From assembly GCA_027314025.1 (NCBI GenBank), contig DAHVCP010000050.1, forward strand, positions 5,753-69,752: a DNA stretch of 64,000 nucleotides. The letters are read 5' to 3'. The translations under genes and the position numbers were made by a program. The notes under the pieces are model-generated. The model searched no databases, was not told the DNA's origin, and saw only the letters and a list, made by a program, of their open reading frames with translations. Source of the DNA: Acidobacteriota bacterium. Lineage in GTDB: Bacteria > Acidobacteriota > Terriglobia > Terriglobales > SCQP01. This document shows positions 6,868-55,395 of the stretch, piece by piece (within the stretch, counting starts at the first letter, position 1; every line of letters starts with the position of its first letter).

Positions 6868-6958
6868 AGAGAACTGGCCGGCCTAACGCCAGGCAAGGAT
6901 GCGCCCGCCGCCGGCCCTGGGCGCGCTCAGTTGGCCCCGGCGTGCGCCGCTGCTAGGT

Positions 6959-7192
6959 GCGCCCCGCTGGCCCTGGGCGCGCCGCCGGAGCTGGCTGTGG
7001 ACCGCCGGAGTCGGGTGCGCGCCGCCGGCCCGCAATCCGGTGCGGCCGTGGCCATCCGCGCCCCGCTGGCCCTGGGCGCGCCGCCGGAGCTGGCTGTGGA
7101 CCGCCGGAGTCGGGTGCGCGCCGCCGGCCCTGGGGGCGCGGGCCGCCGGCCCGCAATCCGGTGCGGACGTGGCCATCCGCGCCCGCAAAATA
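6959..7192. repeat. Tandem duplication, 109-bp period (second unit carries a ~20-bp insertion)
   Basis: GCGCCCCGCTGGCCCTGGGCGCGCCGCCGGAGCTGGCTGTGGACCGCCGGAGTCGGGTGCGCGCCGCCGGCC.. starts at 6959 and again at 7068. Confidence 0.85.
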
Positions 7193-11952: not shown

Positions 11953-12039
11953 GCGATCAACGGCGATGGCGGTAGTGTACCCTGGCGCGCGGTGATCGCG
12001 CCGCCGCCAGGCTGCAACCGCCGGGCCGCGCCTGCGGGG

Positions 12040-12140
12040 CCCCGGTCCAGCCGGGCGCGGAAGCGGCGCTCCGCGCTGCGCCAATCAGAGCGGGACGCCC
12101 CGCCAGCGGCGGGGCTGGGGCCCGCGCCCACCGATGACGA
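12040..12140 (+). repeat. Dispersed GC-rich intergenic repeat, family 1
   Basis: Contains ..AAGCGGCGCTCCGCGCTGCGCCAATCAGAGCGGGACGCCCCGCCAGCGGCGGGGCTGGGGCCCGCGCCCACCGAT. Confidence 0.8.
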
Positions 12141-22469: not shown

Positions 22470-22728
22470 CGGCCCTGCCCGATGCGGCCGCCGCGCTTCC
22501 GGCCGTACCCGTTACCGGCGGTCGAAGCGGCCCCTGCCACTCGCGGGCGGCCGCGCCTTTTCCCCCGGGGCAAAGCAGGTGCGGGCAGGCCGCCGCATGA
22601 AAGAACGCCGCGGCTCGCCCCGCGCGCGTAAGCCAGGGCAACGCCCCGCGCCGATGAAAGCCGCGCTCCGCGCCAATTAAAGCGGGACGCCCCTCCGCAG
22701 GCGCGGCTGGGGCCCGCGCTGATCAACG
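22470..22728 (+). repeat. Dispersed GC-rich intergenic repeat, family 1 (long form)
   Basis: ..GCGCGCGTAAGCC..CGCGCTCCGCGCCAATTAAAGCGGGACGCCCCTCCGCAGGCGCGGCTGGGGCCCGCGCTGATCAA. The upstream arm resembles the arms at 34830 and 43700. Confidence 0.7.
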
Positions 22729-34829: not shown

Positions 34830-35072
34830 TGCTCTGCGCCACGCCCCGTTCGGGGGGCAGGTCCATCTCGCGGGGGCCGCGCCCTTTGCCCGTGGAGCAA
34901 ACCGGGCGCGGGAAGGCTGCGAAATCCCGCGGGGCGGCCCGCCCAAGGCAAGGGAAGCGGCGCGACCCCCGGCGACGCGTCGGCTGGGCCGGGGCGAACG
35001 GGGTCCCCGGCCCAGCCAGCCGCGCAAGCGGGACGCCCGGCGAAGCCGCGCTGAGGCCCGCGCCCATCAACG
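34830..35072 (+). repeat. Dispersed GC-rich intergenic repeat, family 1 (long form)
   Basis: ..GCCGCGCCCTTTGCCCGTGGAGCAAACCGGGCGCGGGAAGGCTGCGAAATCCCGCGG....GCGCAAGCGGGACGCCCGGCGAAGCCGCGCTGAGGCCCGCGCCCATCAA. Confidence 0.7.
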
Positions 35073-35148: not shown

Positions 35149-36987
35149 ATGCGGGCCTTCCCGCAATGTTTTTGGGGCCCGGGCCCCGCCGCGCGCCTGA
35201 AGCGCCCCAGCTCAAGCCCGGGCGCTGCGGTTTCCATCGCGCCGGAACTGCTGCGCACCGCCGCCTATTGGGCGATGCTTGGAGCCGCGGCGCTGGCCGC
35301 CAGCCCGCCGGGCGCGCATTTCAGCGTGCTGATCCGGGGCGGCGAAATCATTGATGGCAGCGGCGGGCGCGCGTATCGCGCCGACATCGGCATCCGCCAC
35401 GGACGGATCGCCGCGATCGGCAACCTCCAGAACGCCCGGGCTGCAACCGTCATTGATGCCCGGGGGTTGGTGGTGGCTCCAGGCTTCATTGACATGCTTT
35501 CCCATTCCGACGCCGCGTTGCTGCGCAACGGCGGCTGTTGCAGCAAGATCTATGAAGGCGTCACCACCGAGGTGCTGGGCGAGACCGCCTCGGTGGCTAC
35601 CGCGGGCCCCTTGGCCGGCGTCGCGCTGCGCCAACAGCGGCGCCTATTTGCCGCGCAAGGCGTATCCGTGAAATGGCGCCGGTTGCGCGGCTATTTTCAG
35701 CGCTTACAGCGCCAAGGCATTCGCCTCAACGTCGCCAGCTACGCTACTTTCGGCTGCATTCGGGAGTCGGTGATGGGCATGTCCAGTTCCGTGCCCACGC
35801 CGGCGCAGTTGGCGGCGGAGCAAGCGATGATGGCCCAAGCCATGCGCGATGGGGCGCTGGGCTTGGCCACGGCGTTCAGCTACGTGCCGGACATTTTTGC
35901 CCGCGATCCGGAAGTGATCGCGGTGGCCCGCGTGGCGGGGAGATATGGCGGCATCTACGCCACCCACGTCCGCGGACTGGGGAACATCAACGCCGGAGGC
36001 ATTCAAGAGGCGATTCGCATTGCCCGCGCCGCGCGCTTGCCGCTGCACATCTTTCACCTCCAGGTGGACCGCAATGACGGCCGGCAAGCTGCCAGCCGGG
36101 CTCTCGGTTGGATCGAGCGCGCCCGGCGCCAGGGCCTGCGCGTCACCGCCGATGCCTACCCCTACCGCGCCGCCGACAACTCCGCCGCTTCCATGGTGCC
36201 GGCGCGGTTTCGCGCCGGGGGCGCCTCCGCCCTGCTGCGCCGCCTCGCCAACCCGCGGCTCCGGGCGGAGATCGTGCGCGGCATCGCCGCCTCCGCCCGC
36301 CGCTTCGGCACGCGCCGCGATCCCGCCGGCTGGCGGCAGGAATATGTCATCTCGATTGCGCGGCCCAGCGACCGCCGCGATCTCGGCAAGAACTTCCAGA
36401 TCCTGGGCATGATGATGCGCCTGCCGCCGGCCCAGGCCGTGGCCCGGCTGTTGCGGCGCGAGGGCGGCAGCTTTGGCCGCATGTTTTTCAACAAGAGCGC
36501 CGCGTCGGTACGGCAGATCATCGCCGCGCCGTTCGTCAGCATTGGCGGCGACGCGATTGACGCCGACATGGCGGACAACGATGGCTATGCCGTCCCCCAT
36601 CCGCGCTACTTTGGCGCCGAAGCGCGGATTCTGGTGTGGGCGCGGGAGAAGCGATTTAGCCTGGCGGAGGCGGTGCACAAGATGACCGGCCTGGCGGCGC
36701 ATAGCTTGCAGCTGCGCGGCCGCGGGTTCATTCGCCGCGGCTACGCGGCGGACGTGGCGATCTTCAATCCCCGCACGGTGCAGGACCACGCCACCTACGC
36801 GCATCCCTGGCGCTACGCCAGCGGCGTCGCGGACGTTCTCGTCAACGGCGTGCCGGTGCTGCTGCATGGCCGCGTGACCGGCGCCCGGCCGGGCCAGGTG
36901 CTCCACGGTCCGGGCTGGCGCCATGGATGGCGAATGGGATCCCCCAGCCAGGCGCGTAAGCGGGACGCCCCGCCGCAGGCGGGCTAG
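35149..36987 (+). CDS. N-acyl-D-amino-acid deacylase (D-aminoacylase) family amidohydrolase; start uncertain
   Basis: LIRGGEIIDGSG..ADIGIRHGRIAAIG..VIDARGLVVAPGFIDMLSHSD and a C-terminal ..ADVAIFNP... The last 11 codons lie in a family-1 repeat. Confidence 0.8.
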   Translation: MRAFPQCFWGPGPAARLKRPSSSPGAAVSIAPELLRTAAYWAMLGAAALAASPPGAHFSVLIRGGEIIDGSGGRAYRADIGIRHGRIAAIGNLQNARAATVIDARGLVVAPGFIDMLSHSDAALLRNGGCCSKIYEGVTTEVLGETASVATAGPLAGVALRQQRRLFAAQGVSVKWRRLRGYFQRLQRQGIRLNVASYATFGCIRESVMGMSSSVPTPAQLAAEQAMMAQAMRDGALGLATAFSYVPDIFARDPEVIAVARVAGRYGGIYATHVRGLGNINAGGIQEAIRIARAARLPLHIFHLQVDRNDGRQAASRALGWIERARRQGLRVTADAYPYRAADNSAASMVPARFRAGGASALLRRLANPRLRAEIVRGIAASARRFGTRRDPAGWRQEYVISIARPSDRRDLGKNFQILGMMMRLPPAQAVARLLRREGGSFGRMFFNKSAASVRQIIAAPFVSIGGDAIDADMADNDGYAVPHPRYFGAEARILVWAREKRFSLAEAVHKMTGLAAHSLQLRGRGFIRRGYAADVAIFNPRTVQDHATYAHPWRYASGVADVLVNGVPVLLHGRVTGARPGQVLHGPGWRHGWRMGSPSQARKRDAPPQAG

Positions 36988-37012
36988 GGCCCGCGCCTAT
37001 CATTGAGCCAGG
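36950..37012 (+). repeat. Dispersed repeat, family 1 (short form), overlapping the stop codons of both convergent genes
   Basis: GGCGCGTAAGCGGGACGCCCCGCCGCAGGCGGGCTAGGGCCCGCGCCTATCATTGAG. Confidence 0.8.
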
Positions 37013-38690
37013 GCCAGCCCACCGCCGGCAGGCAGGGAACGCCCCGGGGCAGGAGCACGGCCCAGAGTTGCGGCGGCGCCGGCATGGTGGCGCAATGGTG
37101 GAAGCGCCGCAGCAGATAGACTTCCAGCGGGCGCGCGCCGGAGAAGGAAGTGACCGGCATGCCGGGGAAGTTCTTTGCCTCCCATTGGATCGCGCCTAAG
37201 TCGAACAGCACCGCCACGGGCGGTGTGGCGGCTAATTCGGCCCGCGCGGCCGCGAACTGCCGGGGTGAGTTCTGTCCCCATTGCAGCCAGGCGAAGCGGG
37301 TGGGATTGGCGCGCCCGGACAGATAGTAGTAATCCGGCAGGTAGGGGTAAACGAAGATCGGTCCGGGTGGCAGGCGCCGCAGGTAGGCCAGCACGGGATC
37401 GGGAACCGCCATGCGCAGCCGGCCGTGCGCGGTGGCCACGGTGGCGGGAAATCCGCCAAGGGCGCGGGCCCAGTAGTGCACGCCGGCCACGGTAAAAAAC
37501 AACAGCACGTACACGGCGATGACCGGCGCCGCCGCGCGGGCCGCCGGGCCCGGGTTGCGGCGGCCCGTGATCCAGGCCAAGGTGAGGACGAAAATGGGCG
37601 TCAAATAGGCGATGTGGCCGTAATCCTGCCGCGTCAGCACCACGCTCAACAGCAAGCCGGCCATGACCGTTCCAGCCAATAGGTAATAGCCCCGAGCCAG
37701 CCCGGAGGGGCGATGGCGCCGCAGTCCCAGCCACAGCGCCGCCGCCACGCCCACGCCGATCCAAGGCAGCAGCAGGATCGCCAGATGGGGACTGAACCAC
37801 AGCCAGGCCTCCGCCTTCGCCAGCCAGGAACCGGTGGACGGGATATGCGCGTGGAAAAACATATATCCGTAGGGCAGCGAATTGGCGGCGAGATAATGCC
37901 GCAGCGGCCAGAGGACATCCGCGATCATTGCGCCCAGCGCGCCTTGGCTGGCGAAGTACGCCGCGGTGGCCAGCGCCGGCAGGGCAAATCCCGCCGCGAT
38001 TGCCCATCCTTGCCGCGGCCGCAGTTGCGCACGCCACGGTGGCCGGCGCACCAGCCACACGGCCGCCGCCGCCAGCCCCAGCACCAGCCCCGCGCCCTTG
38101 GATTGCTCATCCAGGCAGGTCAGGGCGGCGAAAAACCCGACCGCGCCGGCGCTGATCCAATGCGGCCGCTCCAGCCAGAGCACCGCCGCGTACAGCGCCA
38201 GGTAGGCGAGCAGCGTGCTGTCCCAGTTGTGCAGGGTGATGAACTCGAACGGCAGCGTCAGCAACGCCATGGCGTAGGCGGCCAGCAGCGCTGCCCAGCG
38301 CGCCGCCACCCGCCGCGCCAGCAGGTAGGTGAGGACGGCCATCGCCGCGCCTTCCAGCAGGAGGACGACGCGCCCGGTGAATACCGAGTCGCCGAACAGC
38401 CGGAACAGCAGCGCCAGGCCGTAATAGGAACCCGGCGTATAAAAGCTGAAAAAATCCCGGTACAACACCTGCCCATGCAGGATGCGCTGTGCGCCTTGCA
38501 GCAGGATGCCTTCGTCGGGCCAGAAAGCCTCGCAGCGGAGGAACGGTATATATGCGAGGGCGGTGCCCGCAAAGACCACCGCCGCCCAAAGCCATTCCGT
38601 CCACGAACGCTCGGGGCGAAATAGCCCGGCTTCAGGGGGCGCCGGCCGGGCGGCGGCAGGGGCTGCTGCGGTGGGCGAGGTCGGGTGCAT
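36984..38690 (-). CDS. Polytopic membrane glycosyltransferase, GT39/ArnT-like (PMT_2-type)
   Basis: 568 aa and more than 10 TM segments. The N-terminal loop ..FWPDEGILLQGAQRILHGQVLYRDFFSFYTPG.. is typical of ArnT-like lipid-linked sugar transferases. Confidence 0.6.
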   Translation of the reverse strand: MHPTSPTAAAPAAARPAPPEAGLFRPERSWTEWLWAAVVFAGTALAYIPFLRCEAFWPDEGILLQGAQRILHGQVLYRDFFSFYTPGSYYGLALLFRLFGDSVFTGRVVLLLEGAAMAVLTYLLARRVAARWAALLAAYAMALLTLPFEFITLHNWDSTLLAYLALYAAVLWLERPHWISAGAVGFFAALTCLDEQSKGAGLVLGLAAAAVWLVRRPPWRAQLRPRQGWAIAAGFALPALATAAYFASQGALGAMIADVLWPLRHYLAANSLPYGYMFFHAHIPSTGSWLAKAEAWLWFSPHLAILLLPWIGVGVAAALWLGLRRHRPSGLARGYYLLAGTVMAGLLLSVVLTRQDYGHIAYLTPIFVLTLAWITGRRNPGPAARAAAPVIAVYVLLFFTVAGVHYWARALGGFPATVATAHGRLRMAVPDPVLAYLRRLPPGPIFVYPYLPDYYYLSGRANPTRFAWLQWGQNSPRQFAAARAELAATPPVAVLFDLGAIQWEAKNFPGMPVTSFSGARPLEVYLLRRFHHCATMPAPPQLWAVLLPRGVPCLPAVGWPWLNDRRGP

Positions 38691-38962
38691 GAGTGCGGGC
38701 GGCCCGCGGGCCGCGGCAAACCGGGGTGGATGGGCCTACAGCCCACGCTAGCATTCACCGCCGCTGGTTGCGCCTGCGCGGCGATGGTAGAGCCGTTTCC
38801 TGGCCGCGCGGGCAGGCATGGCTTGGGTACCGGCGCCTGGCGCCCGCCGGCCGCGGCAACTTGGAGCGGCCCAAAGCGCCGGCGGGCATCCGTTGCCGGC
38901 CGGCGCAACCCGGGGTGGGGAGCCCGGGGTGGGGAGCCAGCCACAGCGCCGCGACTCGGCCT

Positions 38963-39089
38963 CCAAAACTGAGCGGTTGAGCCGCCGACGAGGCCGGGGC
39001 GGCGTGCGGGCGCGCGCAGGCGCCGGGTCGCTCGCGGCTGGCCGCGGACAGGAGGACCGGCGAGCCAGAGGCCGGGTATTGGTCTAATT
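38963..39089 (+). repeat. Left copy of a ~127-bp direct repeat bracketing the KaiC-like cassette
   Basis: CCAAAACTGAGCGGTTGAGCCGCCGACGAGGCCGGGGCGGCGTGCGGGCGCGCGCAGGCGCCGGGTCGCTCGCGGCTGGCCGCGGACAGGAGGACCGGCGAGCCAGAGGCCGGGTATTGGTCTAATT aligns base by base with 42363-42490. Confidence 0.85.
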
Positions 39090-39183
39090 GGGAATCCCCA
39101 CCACTCCGCCACCCACCTGCCCTCTATTTATGCGAAGGGCCTGACCGCAACCGCTTCTCCCGCCCGGCAACCTCCAGGACCCA

Positions 39184-40698
39184 TTAGCTTGCATCCACCG
39201 TCCCTGGGTGCTCCGAGGGCCCGTCCGGCGATGCGGGTCGGTCCGAGTGAATGGGGATGCCGCTGATCAGGCCCTGATAGTGGATGAGGCGCTTGCCGAG
39301 AATCACCACGCCCTTAGACGTGATCTCATACTCGCGAATATCCTTGGCGTGATTGCCGCCCCGCATCTTGATCACCACGAGAATCTTGCGAAGCTGGCCA
39401 TCGATGGACACGTACCGGAGCCGGACGATGTCGTCGGCGAGAAAAGAAATTGAGTAGGTGCTGAACGGGAACTCAGTAAACGACTCGTCCACTTCCACCG
39501 TGCTCAGAATCGTCACCCCAATTCCCGTCAAAGCGAAGATCATGCGATAGAGCGATTCGCGAAAGTCGGCACGGAAGCCTGGCGACAGAGCCATTTCAAA
39601 GCCAGCCAGCGAATCAATGACCAGACGCTTGGCGCCAATCTTCTGCACGGCGTCGAGGATCGAGTGCATGGTCTCATCCACGGAGAGATCCAGCGGACGC
39701 AAATAGAGGATCTCGAGCTTTCCTTCCTTTTGCGGCGTTTCCAGATCCAACCCTAGGTTGGCGGCCCGCTCCGCGTAGGCCTGCGGACGCTCCTCAAAGA
39801 CGGCCACGATTCCCGACTCTCCTTGGCGTAGGCCCTCGGCAATGAATTGGGTTGCCAGGACCGATTTCCCGGTTCCCGAAGGCCCGGCTACGAGGACGCT
39901 GTCGCCTTCGCGAACGCCGCCACCGAGCATGTTGTCCAACTCGGGAACCCCGAAGCAAAGACGCCTATGGCTGGGCGGATTCCTCACGCGTCCAGTCAGC
40001 CCGAACGTGCGCGAAAACGCCTGCACGCCGGCCTCGGTAATTCGGAAGGTGTGCAGTCCCGGCACGGAATTCTGGCCGCGCAGTTTGATAATCTGCAGCT
40101 TTCGTACGATTGAGTTCCGCTCCGGCGTCTGACGCAACCAGAACAGCCCATCGGCGACGGTGAATATGGGATTGTCGTGCAGCTCGTCCTCGGCATATTC
40201 GCCGATCAGAAACGTTGTCGCCTGCCAGCTGGCCAAGAACAGCGATAACCGTTGAATGAACGATTGCAGGCTGATATCACTCAACGGCTTCCGCGCCATG
40301 GTTCGGAAGGAGTCGACGACTACAAATGCGGGATTGAACCGTTCAACCTCCGCGGTAATCCCATTCAAGACCGCGCCCAGGTCACCATCTAAGACCACCT
40401 GGCTCAGATTGAGGAAGCGAATGGTCCCCGGCAGCTTGGCTGGATCGAAAAAGGTGTACTGTTGCTGGTATCGCAGCATCTTGATGGCAGACTCGCCGAG
40501 GACGGTGAAGTAGAGCGCGGGCTGCGCCGGAGTGGCGTTGGCGAAAACAAATTGATGCGCCAGCGTCGTCTTGCCGCTGCCTGGTTCTCCCGCGATGATG
40601 TTGAAGGAAAATTCTGGGAGACCGCCCCCCACAATCTCGTCAAGCCCCGGAACGCCGGTAGATAATTTGCGGATCGTTACTTTGTCTTGGGTGCTCAT
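39184..40698 (-). CDS. KaiC-like double RecA-domain ATPase
   Basis: Two KaiC/RecA-like domains with Walker A motifs GEPGSGKTTLA and GPSGTGKSVLA, Walker B-like VVVDSF and LVIDSL, and the C-terminal KMRGGNHAKDIREYEI block. Start MSTQDK; ATGA overlap with the upstream ORF. Confidence 0.85.
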   Translation of the reverse strand: MSTQDKVTIRKLSTGVPGLDEIVGGGLPEFSFNIIAGEPGSGKTTLAHQFVFANATPAQPALYFTVLGESAIKMLRYQQQYTFFDPAKLPGTIRFLNLSQVVLDGDLGAVLNGITAEVERFNPAFVVVDSFRTMARKPLSDISLQSFIQRLSLFLASWQATTFLIGEYAEDELHDNPIFTVADGLFWLRQTPERNSIVRKLQIIKLRGQNSVPGLHTFRITEAGVQAFSRTFGLTGRVRNPPSHRRLCFGVPELDNMLGGGVREGDSVLVAGPSGTGKSVLATQFIAEGLRQGESGIVAVFEERPQAYAERAANLGLDLETPQKEGKLEILYLRPLDLSVDETMHSILDAVQKIGAKRLVIDSLAGFEMALSPGFRADFRESLYRMIFALTGIGVTILSTVEVDESFTEFPFSTYSISFLADDIVRLRYVSIDGQLRKILVVIKMRGGNHAKDIREYEITSKGVVILGKRLIHYQGLISGIPIHSDRPASPDGPSEHPGTVDAS

Positions 40699-41150
40699 GC
40701 TTTTCTCGCGTGCTCGGAATGGTAATCGTCGAGGGCTGCCCCTGGCCACGCAACCCGCAGCAGGCTCAAGGTCAAGGCGTCGCCAAGAAATGTAACAAGC
40801 AGGCAGAGTAGGCGAGCGATGAGGACGCGTCCTCCCTCGTCCGCCGGGGACTCGGCAGCCTGATCGTTGTCATTCTTCATTGGATGGCCATACTCGCCCA
40901 GACCCTGCAGTGACCCGTCTCCCGCAATCCGGGCCGCGCTAAGGCCGGGAGCTTCCGTTTGGGCCAGCGTCAAGGCGCGGGCAGCGAACGCTTGAAAACC
41001 CGCGATGCCCGCAAACTCGCTCACGCCCTGGCGTAGCTTCTCGTAGACGCGAAGCGCTGCAGGCTCCGAGGGCGCGGGGAGCGGGTTAGCGGCGGCTTCA
41101 TAAATGAGAAGACGACGGGCTAAATCTCGCATTCCCGGGGCGACCGTCAT
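40695..41150 (-). CDS. Hypothetical helical protein, paralog A of the KaiC-associated pair
   Basis: 151 aa, collinear with the N-terminal ~135 aa of the 231-aa ORF upstream (RDLARxxxxxEA..RVYExLR..GFQAxAARALxLA..LIAxLLxLxxTFLGxAxTLxL). Its stop overlaps the kaiC-like start. Confidence 0.65.
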   Translation of the reverse strand: MTVAPGMRDLARRLLIYEAAANPLPAPSEPAALRVYEKLRQGVSEFAGIAGFQAFAARALTLAQTEAPGLSAARIAGDGSLQGLGEYGHPMKNDNDQAAESPADEGGRVLIARLLCLLVTFLGDALTLSLLRVAWPGAALDDYHSEHARKA

Positions 41151-41297
41151 GTTGACACGTGGTGCAAGGCAGATGCGCTCATTTGCCGTTATCGGCCTCG
41201 TAGGTGGATCGGGGCGGCGCGTCCAGCCTGCCGCAATCGCCCGCGACCGTGAGGTGCGCCGCCTCCAGAGCCGCTCTGGGTACCGTGCGGGCGGAAC

Positions 41298-41993
41298 TCA
41301 ATGCACATAGCCATCGGCGGGCGGGAGCAGTGCGTCTTGCAGGGGGCCGCCAGCCTTGCTTTTGATGAGCGTGAAAACATCCAGCACCGTGGCAATGCTG
41401 TGAATGTTTCCCGCAACACTCAAGAGTCCCTCCTCCATCCCGGGGTACCGGGCCGCGAGGGCTGCAATATGCTCACCCACGCTCCTCAGCTGGTCAATGT
41501 CCACAAGAAGGTCGCCGAAAGCCGTAGCCGTTGCTGGTCCATCGGCAGCTGCCCCGACGACCGCGTCCGCTGCGGTGGTGGCCGGTTCTGCCGGGATGTC
41601 AGCCTGAAGGTGCAAATCGTCAATCAAATGCAGGGTTGTCGCCTCGCCAAGGAAGGTGAGAAACAGCCCGAGCAGCTGTGCAATCAGAGCGATGCCGGCC
41701 TCGCGATACGCATCCGCATCCGTCGGGGACTCAATTTCTTCCAGACCGCGCAAGGTGCCATTTGCCGCAACCTGGGCGGCGTTGAGGCGGGGTGATTGCC
41801 GCTTCGCTAGCGCCAAGGCACGAGCCGCGATCGCCTGAAAGCCGTCAGCACCCATGGTTGAGCCAAGCTGCCGACGCAGCGCCTCATAGACGCGCACCGT
41901 TGCGGGTTGGGCGCGCAGCGTGGTCGTACCGGCATCGGCCTCGCAAACAACGAAGCTGCGGGCCAAATCGCGCGTTTTGTCGGGTGGCGGCAT
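41298..41993 (-). CDS. Hypothetical helical protein, paralog B (with ~95-aa C-terminal extension)
   Basis: 231 aa with an AGGAG RBS before the ATG. Homologous to the 151-aa ORF. No family recognised. Confidence 0.7.
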   Translation of the reverse strand: MPPPDKTRDLARSFVVCEADAGTTTLRAQPATVRVYEALRRQLGSTMGADGFQAIAARALALAKRQSPRLNAAQVAANGTLRGLEEIESPTDADAYREAGIALIAQLLGLFLTFLGEATTLHLIDDLHLQADIPAEPATTAADAVVGAAADGPATATAFGDLLVDIDQLRSVGEHIAALAARYPGMEEGLLSVAGNIHSIATVLDVFTLIKSKAGGPLQDALLPPADGYVH

Positions 41994-42106
41994 CGCTCCT
42001 ATTCCCTGCTTTCACGCCGCGGCTCGCTTTGCACCTGAAGCGTTTACCGCAATGGCACTCCCATGCCGGCAGCTCCGGCAGCCAGACCCTCGAAATATGC
42101 CATTGC

Positions 42107-42135
42107 AATCTATCTTGGCATCAGCCAGGAGTCAA
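42107..42135 (-). promoter_or_regulatory. Sigma70-like promoter candidate for the KaiC-like cassette
   Basis: Minus strand TTGACT (42135-42130), 17-bp spacer, TAGATT (42112-42107). Immediately followed by a 9-bp inverted repeat (42098-42106 / 42049-42057). Confidence 0.35.
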
Positions 42136-42162
42136 TGGCTGAGCAAAAGTGAACCTCCGGCC

Positions 42163-42330
42163 GCAGGGGTCGCGCCGTTTGCACCTAGGCCAAGTCGGCG
42201 CGAAAAGGCCGCGACATTGCCTGCGCGCCCACGGCGCGCGGAAGAAGGCCGCGGCTCGCCTGAGCCAGCGCAGCGGCGCGGCCCCCAGCGACGCGTAAGC
42301 GGGGCAGCGCCCCGCGCCCGTCAATAGCGG
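42163..42330 (+). repeat. Dispersed repeat, family 1 (degenerate long form)
   Basis: Starts GGGGTCGCGCCGTTTGCACCTAGGC (compare 47524 GGGTCGCGCCGTTTGCACCTGGGC). Ends ..GACGCGTAAGCGGGGCAGCGCCCCGCGCCCGTCAATAGC. Confidence 0.65.
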
Positions 42331-42362
42331 TGCCGAGGCCCTCGTCCCCGGCCCCGCAGCGG

Positions 42363-42490
42363 CCAAAAATGAGCGGCTGTGAGCCGCCGGCGAGGCCGAG
42401 GCGGCGTGCGGGTGTGCGCAGGCGCCGGGTCGCTCGCGGCTGGCCGCGGGCAGGATGACCGCCAAGCCAGGGGCTGGGAATTGGTCTAAT
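42363..42490 (+). repeat. Right copy of the ~127-bp direct repeat bracketing the KaiC-like cassette
   Basis: CCAAAAATGAGCGGCTGTGAGCCGCCGGCGAGGCCGAGGCGGCGTGCGGGTGTGCGCAGGCGCCGGGTCGCTCGCGGCTGGCCGCGGGCAGGATGACCGCCAAGCCAGGGGCTGGGAATTGGTCTAAT. Ends 6 nt before the OYE start codon. Confidence 0.85.
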
Positions 42491-42496
42491 AGCTAC

Positions 42497-43588
42497 ATGG
42501 ACCATCTTTTCGCTCCCTGGCGCCAGCGCGGGCTGGATCTGAAGAACCGCATCGTGGTTTCGCCGATGTGTGAATATTCCAGCCAAGACGGCTTCGCCAA
42601 CGACTGGCACTTCGTGCATTTGGGCAGCCGCGGGATCGGCGGCGCGGGTTTGGTGTTTACGGAGGCGTCGGCGGTGACGCCCGAAGGCCGGATCAGTCCC
42701 GACGATTTGGGCATTTGGGACGACCGCCATATCGCCCCGCTGCGGCGCATCGTGGACTTCCTGCACCAGCACGGCGCCCGTGCCGGCATGCAACTGGCGC
42801 ATGCCGGCCGCAAAGGCAGCACCTTCGCGCCGGCCCGTGGCGAGGGCGCGGTGCCGCTGGAGCAGGGCGGCTGGACGCCAGTGGCCCCCAGCGCGTTACG
42901 CTTCGCGCCCAACTATCCCCTGCCGCGGGAGCTGGATGCCGCGGGCATCGCCGCCGTGGCCGCCGCCTTCGCCGCCGCCGCCCGCCGGGCGCTGGCCGCA
43001 GGCTTCGATGTGGTCGAAATTCACGCCGCTCACGGCTATCTGCTGCATGAGTTTTTGTCGCCGCTCAGCAATCAGCGCCAGGATGGTTACGGCGGCAGCC
43101 TGGAAAATCGCGGCCGCATCGTGGCCGAAGTGATCGCTGCCGTCCGCGCGGTTTGGCCGCAGGAGCGGCCGCTGTGGCTGCGCATCTCCGCCACCGATTG
43201 GGCGCCCGGGGGCTGGGACGTCGAACAGTCCGTGGCGCTGGTGAGCCGCTTGGCGCCGTTGGGCGTGGACCTGGTGGACTGCTCTTCCGGCGGCAACGTG
43301 GCGCAGGCGCAGATCCCGGTCGGCCCGGGATATCAGACCGCCTTCGCCGCCCGCATTCGCCGCGAGACCGGCACGGCCACTGGCGCGGTGGGCATGATCG
43401 TCGCGCCTGCCCAGGCCGACGCCATCATTCGCAGCGGCCAAGCCGACGTGGTGTTGCTGGCGCGGGAAATGCTGCGCGACCCCTATTGGCCGCTGCGCGC
43501 GGCGCGCGAACTGGGGCAGACGGCGGCGTGGCCGGTGCAATATCTGCGCGCCGCGCCCGCCGGCAGCCCCGCCGCCCAGCCGGTGTGA
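42497..43588 (+). CDS. NADH:flavin oxidoreductase, Old Yellow Enzyme family (YqjM/NamA type)
   Basis: NRIVVSPMCEYS, HFVHLGSRG, HAAHGYLLHEFLSPLSNQRQDGYGGS, ADVVLLAREMLRDPYW. Confidence 0.9.
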   Translation: MDHLFAPWRQRGLDLKNRIVVSPMCEYSSQDGFANDWHFVHLGSRGIGGAGLVFTEASAVTPEGRISPDDLGIWDDRHIAPLRRIVDFLHQHGARAGMQLAHAGRKGSTFAPARGEGAVPLEQGGWTPVAPSALRFAPNYPLPRELDAAGIAAVAAAFAAAARRALAAGFDVVEIHAAHGYLLHEFLSPLSNQRQDGYGGSLENRGRIVAEVIAAVRAVWPQERPLWLRISATDWAPGGWDVEQSVALVSRLAPLGVDLVDCSSGGNVAQAQIPVGPGYQTAFAARIRRETGTATGAVGMIVAPAQADAIIRSGQADVVLLAREMLRDPYWPLRAARELGQTAAWPVQYLRAAPAGSPAAQPV

Positions 43589-43594
43589 GCGCGC

Positions 43595-43810
43595 GGAGCG
43601 TTTACTGGCGCGGGCCCCAGCCCCGCCTGCGGCGGAGCGCCCCGCTTTGATGGGCGCGGGGCGTCGCCGCCCCGCTTAGGCGCTGCCGGGGGCTGCGCCG
43701 CCTCCTTTGCCCGGGGCAGGCCGCGGCGTGCCTGTGCGCGCCGCGCGGGCGCTGGAATTTCCGCGGCCTTCCCGCGACCGCTTTGCGCGTCGGGGCAAAA
43801 GCCGGGCCTG
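43595..43810 (-). repeat. Dispersed repeat, family 1 (long form, inverted orientation)
   Basis: The reverse complement reads ..CGCCTAAGCGGGGCGGCGACGCCCCGCGCCCATCAAAGCGGGGCGCTCCGCCGCAGGCGGGGCTGGGGCCCGCGCCAGTAAA. Confidence 0.7.
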
Positions 43811-47494: not shown

Positions 47495-47523
47495 CGTTCT
47501 TGGATTGTAGCCTCTCTGCCGCG

Positions 47524-47690
47524 AGGGTCGCGCCGTTTGCACCTGGGCAATGCCGGCGGGAAACGGCCGCACAATTCCGCGGGACGGCCCGCCCCCGGCC
47601 CTGCCTGGCGCGTAAGCGGCGCTCCGCGCCGCGCCAATTCAAGCGGGACGCCCCGCCGCAGGCGGGGCTGGGCCCGCGCCCATCAATTTT
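47524..47690 (+). repeat. Dispersed repeat, family 1 (near-consensus long form)
   Basis: GGGTCGCGCCGTTTGCACCTGGGC....GGCGCGTAAGCGGCGCTCCGCGCCGCGCCAATTCAAGCGGGACGCCCCGCCGCAGGCGGGGCTGGGCCCGCGCCCATCAAT. Confidence 0.8.
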
Positions 47691-50124: not shown

Positions 50125-50240
50125 ATGGCCGGTCGCGGGGCCCCCGGCCCAGCCTGGCGCGTAAGCGGCGCTCCGCGCCGCGCCAATTAAGGCGGGATGC
50201 CCCGCCGCAGCCGCGCTGCGGCCTGCGCCAGTCAATCGGA
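50125..50240 (+). repeat. Dispersed repeat, family 1
   Basis: ..GGCGCGTAAGCGGCGCTCCGCGCCGCGCCAATTAAGGCGGGATGCCCCGCCGCAGCCGCGCTGCGGCCTGCGCCAGTCAAT. Confidence 0.8.
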
Positions 50241-55099: not shown

Positions 55100-55395
55100 C
55101 TACTCGCGTGCGGTTGGATGAGAGCCGCTGAATGCAAGTTGGCCGCTCGCCGGGCCGCGCCTCTCGCCCGGGCAAAGCGGGAGCGGAAAGGCCGCGATGC
55201 TCCCGGCGACCCCTTGGCGCGCGGGGGCCGGGCGGCCCGCCGAAGCAAGCAGTGCGGCGCGGCCCCCAGCGATGCGCCGACTGGGCTGGGGCGAACGGGG
55301 CCCCGCCCCAGCCGGCGCGCAAGCGGCGCACCGCGCCGCGCCGATCCAAGCGGGATGCCCCGCCTTGACGGGGCTGGGGCCCGCGCCATTCAATG
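55100..55395 (+). repeat. Dispersed repeat, family 1 (long form)
   Basis: ..GGCGCGCAAGCGGCGCACCGCGCCGCGCCGATCCAAGCGGGATGCCCCGCCTTGACGGGGCTGGGGCCCGCGCCATTCAAT. Confidence 0.75.

Follow-up and report, generated by a model that had tools for sequence, protein, structure and literature searches.

What does a KaiC-like ATPase do when it is encoded together with two small proteins that are neither KaiA nor KaiB? KaiC homologs are common in bacteria that lack KaiA and often also KaiB, and their mechanism of action is stated to be unknown (PMC11832031; bioRxiv 10.1101/2022.01.26.477890). The question is raised here by a cassette of three genes, A, B and C (positions 41993-39184, minus strand), found in a stretch of 64,000 nucleotides (nt) from an Acidobacteriota bacterium of the Terriglobales (contig DAHVCP010000050.1, assembly GCA_027314025.1), which is hereafter called the window. 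Gene C encodes a KaiC-like protein with two RecA-type ATPase domains, and A and B encode two related proteins of another kind. We read the locus as a horizontally acquired A-B-C operon for a KaiC-centred signalling module, in which A and B would be obligate partners of a particular KaiC subtype, and we give this reading a probability of about 0.6. KaiC-like signalling modules are of an already known kind; what is new here is a widespread, unannotated partner family in place of KaiA and KaiB, which provides a concrete candidate, open to testing, for the partner that has been missing from non-cyanobacterial KaiC systems.

Organization of the cassette

Gene A (41993-41298, 231 amino acids), gene B (41150-40695, 151 amino acids) and gene C (40698-39184, 504 amino acids from its ATG) are open reading frames (ORFs) on the minus strand, exactly where the original prediction, made from the letters of the DNA, had placed three co-oriented genes. 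The gap that it described between A and B is also present, but measures 147 nt from the stop of A to the ATG of B rather than 148. Moreover, the start of C overlaps the stop of B, as had been noticed: the ATGA at 40698-40695 combines the ATG of C with the TGA of B, and the two genes appear to be translationally coupled. An alternative GTG start 17 codons further upstream would extend the product of C to 521 amino acids, but its homologs begin at MSTQ. The A-B-C arrangement is not a matter of chance, since it recurs in 86 independent loci and synteny is complete wherever the available sequence sufficed.

Gene C represents a distinct KaiC subtype

The Pfam KaiC domain (PF06745) is found in two stretches of gene C (expectation value, E=9e-73; 244.9 bits against a cut-off of 26.6), in agreement with the duplicated RecA/KaiC architecture that had been read from the sequence, and the motifs listed at the time, GEPGSGKTT, GPSGTGKSV and KMRGGNHAKDIREYEI, are all there. 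With two tandem RecA-type KaiC domains, a Walker A motif in each, and residues 5-484 collinear end to end with the NCBIfam KaiC models, gene C belongs to the broad KaiC family. The nearest solved structures are likewise those of KaiC: in a comparison with PDB sequences, cyanobacterial and reconstructed ancestral KaiC matched at E=1e-52 to 3e-61 and Rhodobacter KaiC (8dba) at E=5e-39. Circadian clock KaiC proper is another matter, as gene C remains below the cut-offs of both equivalog models (NF006799, 244.7 vs 408 bits; TIGR02655, 161.7 vs 546 bits) and is about 27% identical to S. elongatus KaiC. Among themselves, the KaiC proteins that accompany B share 64-87% identity over four phyla, compared with 25-29% to S. 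elongatus KaiC.

Membership in the RecA superfamily is also what would be expected of a RadA/Sms- or RecA-like DNA repair ATPase, for which A and B might serve as accessory DNA-binding factors, and weak matches of gene C to RadA, RecA and DnaB do exist. These come from the P-loop regions, to which the RadA/Sms matches are confined, and the overall architecture is that of a duplicated KaiC domain. In particular, C reaches 70 bits with the RadA/Sms model (TIGR00416; cut-off 403) and 32 with RecA (cut-off 325), whereas the KaiC models cover residues 5-484 at 245 bits. With RadA/Sms at 70 bits, the objection that the ATPase might group with RadA rather than with KaiC, raised together with the original prediction as a point to be checked, fails. 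Gene C also has neither a zinc finger nor a Lon-like domain, and no repair genes recur in its neighbourhood. We regard a role in repair as extremely improbable and this explanation as close to refuted.

Within the KaiC family, gene C is set apart by a few positions, given here with the KaiC numbering of S. elongatus (E77/E78, E318/E319, S431/T432). In domain I, Walker A is intact, and the sequence TVLGE places G68-E69 where KaiC has E77-E78. In domain II, Walker A is kept, and FEE aligns E302-E303 with E318/E319; a Glu-Glu pair is thus present in domain II only, whereas clock KaiC has one in both domains. At the phosphosite (ISFL), Ser418 stands at the S431 position and Phe419 at that of T432, which leaves the serine alone of the phospho-acceptor pair. 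In the alignment to S. elongatus KaiC, the KaiB-binding loop region is 5-6 residues shorter. The residues G68-E69, E302-E303 and Ser418-Phe419 are invariant in 58 family members and in the other phyla, four phyla in all. Among the 58 Terriglobales-type copies of C, mean column identity, taken in blocks of 24 residues, is at least 0.86 everywhere but in the final 24 residues and at least 0.9 in most blocks. Judged by its sequence, gene C belongs to a distinct KaiC subtype with a G-E / S-F signature and is probably a hexamer-type, double-domain KaiC-like ATPase and autokinase. In four of the homologous loci (numbered with L throughout), the KaiC-like gene is split into two frames (L016, 7298-8699; L045, 4914-6396; L065, 7300-8797; L072, 7295-8792); these are either pseudogenes or assembly frameshifts, and several of the assemblies are long-read.

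The same features bear on the idea that the cassette keeps time, as an hourglass or an oscillator, with A and B as functional analogues of KaiA and KaiB that would drive a phosphorylation cycle of the KaiC-like hexamer. The double-domain build, the intact active site of domain II with Ser at the S431 position and the extreme conservation of C are in keeping with a timer, as is the presence of two different small partners, as in KaiABC; in addition, the mode of action of KaiC homologs without KaiA and KaiB is treated as open in the literature (PMC11832031). However, the S431/T432 pair is reduced to a single phospho-acceptor by the Phe at position 432, the KaiB-binding loop region is shortened, and most relatives carry B without A. 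Domain I lacks one catalytic Glu, although it is the slow ATPase activity of domain I that sets the period of KaiC. A timing device of this kind is therefore, in our view, unlikely.

A and B belong to an unannotated protein family

Like cyanobacterial KaiC, gene C is encoded with two small partners; unlike KaiA and KaiB, to which they are unrelated, these partners are paralogs of each other, as had been predicted (residues 8-124 of A match B at 45% identity, E=1e-16). Gene B is a single copy of the shared domain of approx. 125 amino acids, whereas gene A consists of the same domain at its N-terminus, an Ala/Thr/Pro-rich linker and a conserved C-terminal helical hairpin of approx. 75 amino acids. 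The domain contains the motifs RDLA..L, RVYEKLR, G..GF..L.SRAL.LA and ADGSL.GL and a hydrophobic helix that ends in LTL.L. We propose that the family be recognized by these motifs together with a location directly upstream of a KaiC gene of the G-E / S-F subtype; both are found in the cassette.

The partners had been described as unrecognized and as unlike KaiA or KaiB, and no comparison has assigned them to a characterized family. With E allowed to rise to 1, A and B still matched nothing in Pfam, NCBIfam, PADLOC or PHROGs. Fifty-four diverse members of the family gave no consistent match in Pfam, with scattered ones at E of 0.002 or worse, and none to KaiA (PF07688). A comparison of A/B profiles with PDB sequences yielded nothing credible, the top match being a designed helical repeat at E=0.056. 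The kaiB gene (with or without kaiA) that accompanies a clock kaiC is not found here: neither upstream gene matches a model of KaiA or KaiB, and tblastn with a KaiB query gave no match in the 64-kb window. In the literature on KaiC in Acidobacteria, defence, HWE kinases and operon partners, the A/B family did not turn up, the 2017 survey of KaiC-like gene neighbourhoods (Makarova) lying outside this coverage.

Homologs of A fall into at least 2,257 clusters at 90% identity and those of B into at least 1,316. They come mostly from soil and peat metagenomes; all those named by their source are called 'hypothetical protein', and they carry zero Pfam domains. A profile of both paralogs, searched against 1.84 billion proteins, collected a superfamily of 2,359 representatives at 50% identity, 1,291 of them at E up to 1e-10. 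The best 150 matches to the A/B profile are all short (77-284 amino acids) and none is fused to a known domain. AlphaFold2 models, which were made from shallow alignments of 21 sequences, are all-helical for both proteins, as had been expected, at low confidence (predicted local distance difference test, pLDDT, of 43 for A and 50 for B). A and B thus appear to represent a family of helical proteins that has escaped annotation.

The last helix of the shared domain (residues ~98-125 of A and ~105-131 of B) is very hydrophobic. Its Kyte-Doolittle 19-residue maximum ranges from 1.5 to 2.7 (median 2.0) and is at least 1.6 in 52 of the 54 members, values at which membrane association is conceivable; A and B might anchor the KaiC-like ATPase there, or be its substrates for remodelling, and the ATPase would then serve an envelope-linked process rather than act as a soluble signalling hub. 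The frequent presence of envelope and stress proteins (BON, Ysc84-type, VIT1, MgtA-type P-ATPase) next to the Terriglobales cassettes would suit such a role. On the other hand, the helix mostly contains one or two charged residues (Arg, Asp or Glu) or Gln, as in VLIARLLCLLVTFLGDALT, and in A a long and conserved helical hairpin comes after it, soluble in appearance and with no export signal. Moreover, the partners most strongly conserved from phylum to phylum, kinases and response regulators, are cytoplasmic. Membrane association as the basis of the system seems rather unlikely.

Synteny and phyletic distribution

A scan with one genome per species returned 122 loci, of which 80 were kept; synteny was counted over 86 loci. 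The 80 kept loci are nearly all from Terriglobales (Acidobacteriaceae, Terracidiphilus, Sulfotelmatobacter, Korobacteraceae); the cultured Silvibacterium bohemicum S15 is represented, as is one genome binned as Solirubrobacterales. Where enough sequence was available, B follows A in 79 of 79 loci and KaiC follows B in 74 of 74. Linkage of the small proteins to KaiC-like genes, which had been suggested as a check on the prediction, also holds for seven distant B-like genes, all of which lie directly upstream of a KaiC-like gene 66-79% identical to C. In four of these seven, the stop of B overlaps the start of KaiC, and a histidine kinase follows KaiC wherever downstream DNA was present.

Among the distant relatives, three are metagenomic: L088 (B and KaiC, then the end of the contig), L089 (an A-like gene, B and KaiC) and L090/L091 (B, KaiC and two PAS hybrid kinases of the PAS-HisKA type). 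The others are found on the Paracoccus liaowanqingii plasmid NZ_CP040765.1 (L092, 1-12510; B, KaiC, HWE kinase, response regulator), on the Sphingomonas radiodurans chromosome (L093; B, KaiC, HWE kinase, receiver protein), in a Pirellulales genome (L094; B, KaiC, PAS-HisKA hybrid kinase, receiver-MpsC protein) and on a Dormibacteraeota-type contig (L095; B, KaiC). Linkage of A/B with KaiC therefore spans at least four bacterial phyla, with members of Acidobacteriota, Alphaproteobacteria, Planctomycetota and Dormibacterota, as well as many soil metagenomes. As every distant B-like gene lies directly upstream of KaiC, the universal core of the system consists of B and KaiC; paralog A is lineage-specific, occurring in the Terriglobales cassette and in a small number of relatives, L089 among them. 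No homolog of A was found in the phage collection, and the plasmid collection contained one B homolog, in Paracoccus. That operon lies on a 310-kb plasmid, ringed by IS110, IS5 and IS21 transposase genes, which suggests that this version of the module is mobile too.

Several Terriglobales genomes contain two to four copies of the cassette. Four are present in the Terracidiphilus genome SMAG_U390 (L017, L047, L066 and L083), and further pairs are L016/L036, L072/L079 and L068/L086. Two copies, L047 and L083, share one 14-kb contig, on which they face outwards; two Crp/Fnr genes and a response regulator gene lie between them, and each copy has a Crp/Fnr regulator upstream. The module is very abundant in peat and soil Acidobacteriota, whose stress and dormancy regulation is poorly understood. 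The partner question can be directly tested in cultured organisms, namely Sphingomonas radiodurans, Paracoccus liaowanqingii and Silvibacterium bohemicum S15.

Horizontal acquisition of the cassette

The lower guanine-plus-cytosine (GC) content that had been noticed in the kaiC-like gene extends to the whole cassette, which has a GC content of 0.609 compared with 0.682 for the rest of the window (0.59-0.64 vs about 0.70 in 1-kb bins). In contrast, the cassettes of the Terriglobales loci match their surroundings, with a mean GC content of 0.562 in the cassette and 0.581 in the flanks. Two close relatives bear on how this difference arose. One, locus L007 (Acidobacteria bacterium clean272), aligns collinearly with the window at ~95% identity and has this cassette in the corresponding position. 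Locus L087, a metagenome contig that is 96% identical in both flanks, lacks the cassette and contains 274 unrelated bases instead, such that the genes for a glycosyltransferase and an old-yellow-enzyme-type oxidoreductase (Oxidored_FMN) are direct neighbours. L087 is collinear with the window up to 38828 and again from 42471, which sets the outer limits of the insertion or deletion at 38829-42470; this segment is present in the window and in L007. The GC offset and the relative without the cassette bear out the proposed foreign origin: the cassette in the window was horizontally acquired. We propose that the donor was a Terriglobales-like bacterium of lower GC content and that only A-B-C and the leader upstream of A were taken up. 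The module is thus able to pass between lineages as a compact three-gene unit. In comparison with the L007 orthologs, the ratio of nonsynonymous to synonymous substitution rates (dN/dS) stands at 0.21 in C and 0.22 in B and reaches 0.55 in A; B and C have been under purifying selection since the split from the L007 lineage.

Horizontal acquisition and presence/absence polymorphism between close relatives are also properties of anti-phage and anti-plasmid defence systems, and the cassette might be one, with the KaiC-like ATPase as sensor or motor and the small proteins as effectors. Transposases and an integrase near some copies point in the same direction, as does a weak PADLOC match of C to mad8 (E=1.4e-10), which covers approx. 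50 residues around the P-loop (262-315). However, PADLOC and PHROGs contain no model that A or B matches, and the full set of components that PADLOC-DB 2.0 asks of a system is absent; the phage collection gave zero matches. Furthermore, the GC content of the Terriglobales cassettes is that of their surroundings, genomes hold up to four copies, two of them with a Crp/Fnr regulator upstream, and the genes that recur around the cassette encode kinases, response regulators and stress proteins rather than restriction, Abi or toxin functions. A defence function is highly unlikely.

Neighbouring genes and proposed function

The genes that accompany the cassette in other genomes suggest what it may do. 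In Terriglobales, a Crp/Fnr regulator (cNMP_binding and HTH_Crp_2 domains) is encoded within 2 kb upstream of A, mostly divergently, in 39 of 72 loci; in another 10 of 54, such a regulator is found on the downstream side of KaiC. Ten of 54 loci have a gene for a PAS-HisKA kinase immediately after KaiC. Recurrent neighbours of stress or envelope types are CsbD, BON, Ysc84-type and VIT1 proteins, as identified by Pfam, and an MgtA-type P-ATPase, as identified by sequence inspection. In the Alphaproteobacteria Paracoccus and Sphingomonas, KaiC is followed by an HWE kinase with approx. 47 residues ahead of its kinase domain; so short a stretch indicates that the kinase has no sensor of its own, which makes KaiC and B the obvious candidate for its input.

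The one analogue that has been studied experimentally comes from Pseudomonas, in which a KaiC-like protein binds the PAS domain of an adjacent kinase and the module aids stress resistance (bioRxiv 10.1101/2022.01.26.477890). Terrettaz et al., who described the module in environmental Pseudomonas, found KaiC to recur next to genes for a kinase, a response regulator, an EPS sortase and a CsrA/RsmA-type regulator (bioRxiv 10.1101/2022.01.26.477890). Relatives of the cassette in Paracoccus, Sphingomonas, Pirellulales and L090/L091 share this layout of KaiC, PAS or HWE kinase and response regulator, and the 10 of 54 Terriglobales loci have the kinase after KaiC; the cassette in the window has no adjacent kinase or response regulator. 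Another difference is that this study reports no small helical partner. Moreover, the phosphosite of Pseudomonas KaiC groups I-III is TY/SY, SS (sometimes CS or SG) or none (bioRxiv 10.1101/2022.01.26.477890), unlike the invariant SF pair of the cassette subtype.

Other KaiC systems without KaiA differ more. Legionella KaiBC is reported to have a role in stress adaptation (cited in PMC11832031). Like these non-cyanobacterial KaiBC systems (Legionella; Rhodobacter sphaeroides, PDB 8dba), the cassette has a KaiC homolog without KaiA; unlike them, it has no KaiB, and its partner is predicted to be all-helical and belongs to another family. The KaiBC system of Rhodobacter sphaeroides is reported to be an hourglass timer. 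Archaeal KaiC-like ATPases have reportedly been proposed to be signal-transduction hubs by Makarova, Galperin and Koonin (mBio, 2017; cited in PMC6393860). The cassette resembles such hubs in combining a KaiC-family ATPase with varied small input or output proteins for signalling apart from circadian timing. In contrast to gene C, the archaeal proteins are mostly single-domain, and the NCBIfam models KaiC_arch and thermo_KaiC match half of C.

In the signalling module that we favour, B, and in the Terriglobales lineage also A, would bind the KaiC-like hexamer as its obligate partner, as the operon structure suggests. They would take the input or modulator role that KaiA and KaiB have for clock KaiC and may modulate the ATPase activity or the phosphorylation of the hexamer. 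A histidine kinase would then read the nucleotide or phosphorylation state of the complex and pass the signal to a response regulator; in relatives, this kinase would be the one encoded directly downstream, which belongs to the PAS type in some and is an HWE kinase without a sensor in others. In the Terriglobales cassettes, the neighbouring Crp/Fnr-type regulator probably controls expression via the conserved operator and leader. Of the three roles named in the original prediction (signalling, stress or defence), the KaiC-centred module itself stands, and signalling is favoured over defence because of the kinase and response regulator links in other phyla, the Crp/Fnr links in Terriglobales and the lack of any defence signature in PADLOC, PHROGs or the phage collection. 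The small proteins may act as adaptors or effectors, as that prediction suggested.

Several observations weigh against this reading. In the window, no kinase, response regulator or Crp/Fnr gene adjoins the cassette, and tblastn with a Crp/Fnr regulator, a PAS kinase, an HWE kinase and receiver domains as queries gave no match in the 64 kb. A and B have no recognizable domain and their models are poor; a Foldseek search with the B model against the PDB gave E values of 3 or worse. A is under weaker constraint than its partners, and the hydrophobic last helix leaves room for membrane anchoring. The enzyme chemistry of gene C may also differ from that of KaiC, given that one of the two catalytic Glu residues of domain I is missing (G68-E69) and Thr432 is replaced by Phe.

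A broader proposal can be put forward tentatively, as a possibility that we hold to be well short of even odds. A/B might be the general, hitherto overlooked partner of a widespread non-cyanobacterial KaiC lineage, binding the hexamer and setting its ATPase and phosphorylation state in place of KaiA and KaiB, and might, together with KaiC, form the sensory input of sensor-less kinases, possibly as an hourglass-type timer or as a gauge of energy or stress.

Regulatory regions

Conservation at the DNA level extends upstream of A for approx. 190 nt in 84 loci (at about 5810-6000 in L009-L086); in the window, this putative 5' regulatory and leader region occupies 41994-42159 (minus strand), and homology to the other loci stops where a host-type repeat, D6 (42160-42212), starts. 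The region contains a conserved inverted repeat, TG(G/T)TCAA-N2-TTG(A/C)(C/T)CA, whose version in the window, GTTCAC-TT-TTGCTC, is operator-like; upstream of A there are no classical FNR (TTGAT-N4-ATCAA) or CRP (TGTGA-N6-TCACA) boxes. It also contains a palindrome, TTTCCGGAAA, that is deleted in the window and in L007. A promoter-like site, TTGACT-17-TAGATT, is found in the window at 42135-42107. Approx. 25-55 nt ahead of the ATG of A, the leader can form a hairpin that is 82.5% paired, with compensatory change in 5 of 8 pairs; its covariation score was reached by 12 of 500 shuffles. RNAalifold gave no consensus structure of the leader with default scoring and this one hairpin, moderately supported, with RIBOSUM scoring. 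An Rfam search of the cassette and its flanks found no match beyond one chance-level hit. Possibly, the conserved region comprises an operator for the neighbouring Crp/Fnr regulator and a structured 5' untranslated region.

The spacer between A and B (41151-41297, minus strand, 147 nt) is likewise conserved: in an alignment of 76 spacers, the length (median 156 nt) and much of the consensus sequence are kept. It opens, right after the stop of A, with the hairpin CCAGAGCGGCTCTGG (CCAGAG-CGG-CTCTGG), a candidate attenuator, processing site or internal regulatory element.

Repeats around the cassette and elsewhere in the window

The cassette is bracketed by two directly oriented copies of a 111-nt repeat, D5, which are 90% identical and spaced by 3,402 nt. 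The left copy (38978-39088) lies downstream of KaiC and includes a terminator-like hairpin with a T-run on the minus strand; the right copy (42380-42490), in which a terminator-like hairpin was scored at 42388-42372, ends just upstream of the start of the Oxidored_FMN oxidoreductase gene. Both copies and the empty site of L087 end in GGTATTGGTCTAAT or GGAATTGGTCTAAT, and the ending of the D5 copies, ATTGGTCTAAT, recurs in the empty site just before the oxidoreductase start codon. The empty site has only the last ~20 nt in common with D5, no integrase is present, and host-type intergenic repeats abound in the region. The D5 repeats could be a duplication made by insertion, att-like sites or a host intergenic repeat. 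The oxidoreductase ORF (42455-43588, plus strand) begins 14 codons ahead of the start in L087 (MDHLFAPW...); since these extra codons lie inside the right D5 copy, the true start is probably the ATG at 42497.

GC-rich intergenic repeat families of ~50-100 nt, resembling repetitive extragenic palindromic (REP) sequences or miniature inverted-repeat transposable elements (MITEs), are dispersed over both strands of the window. Copies are found at 12038-12134, 22664-22719, 36960-37027, 43574-43663, 47591-47687, 50140-50236 and 55298-55394, at 34943-35007, 42259-42323 and 55240-55304, and at 22541-22593, 42160-42212 (D6, at the edge of the leader) and 47518-47570. Two of the intergenic repeats lie between the leader of the cassette and the right D5 copy. 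Further away, at 6946-7184, there are tandem GC-rich repeats of two lengths, ~86 nt at a spacing of 99 nt and ~51 nt at a spacing of 121 nt, with 93-94% identity.

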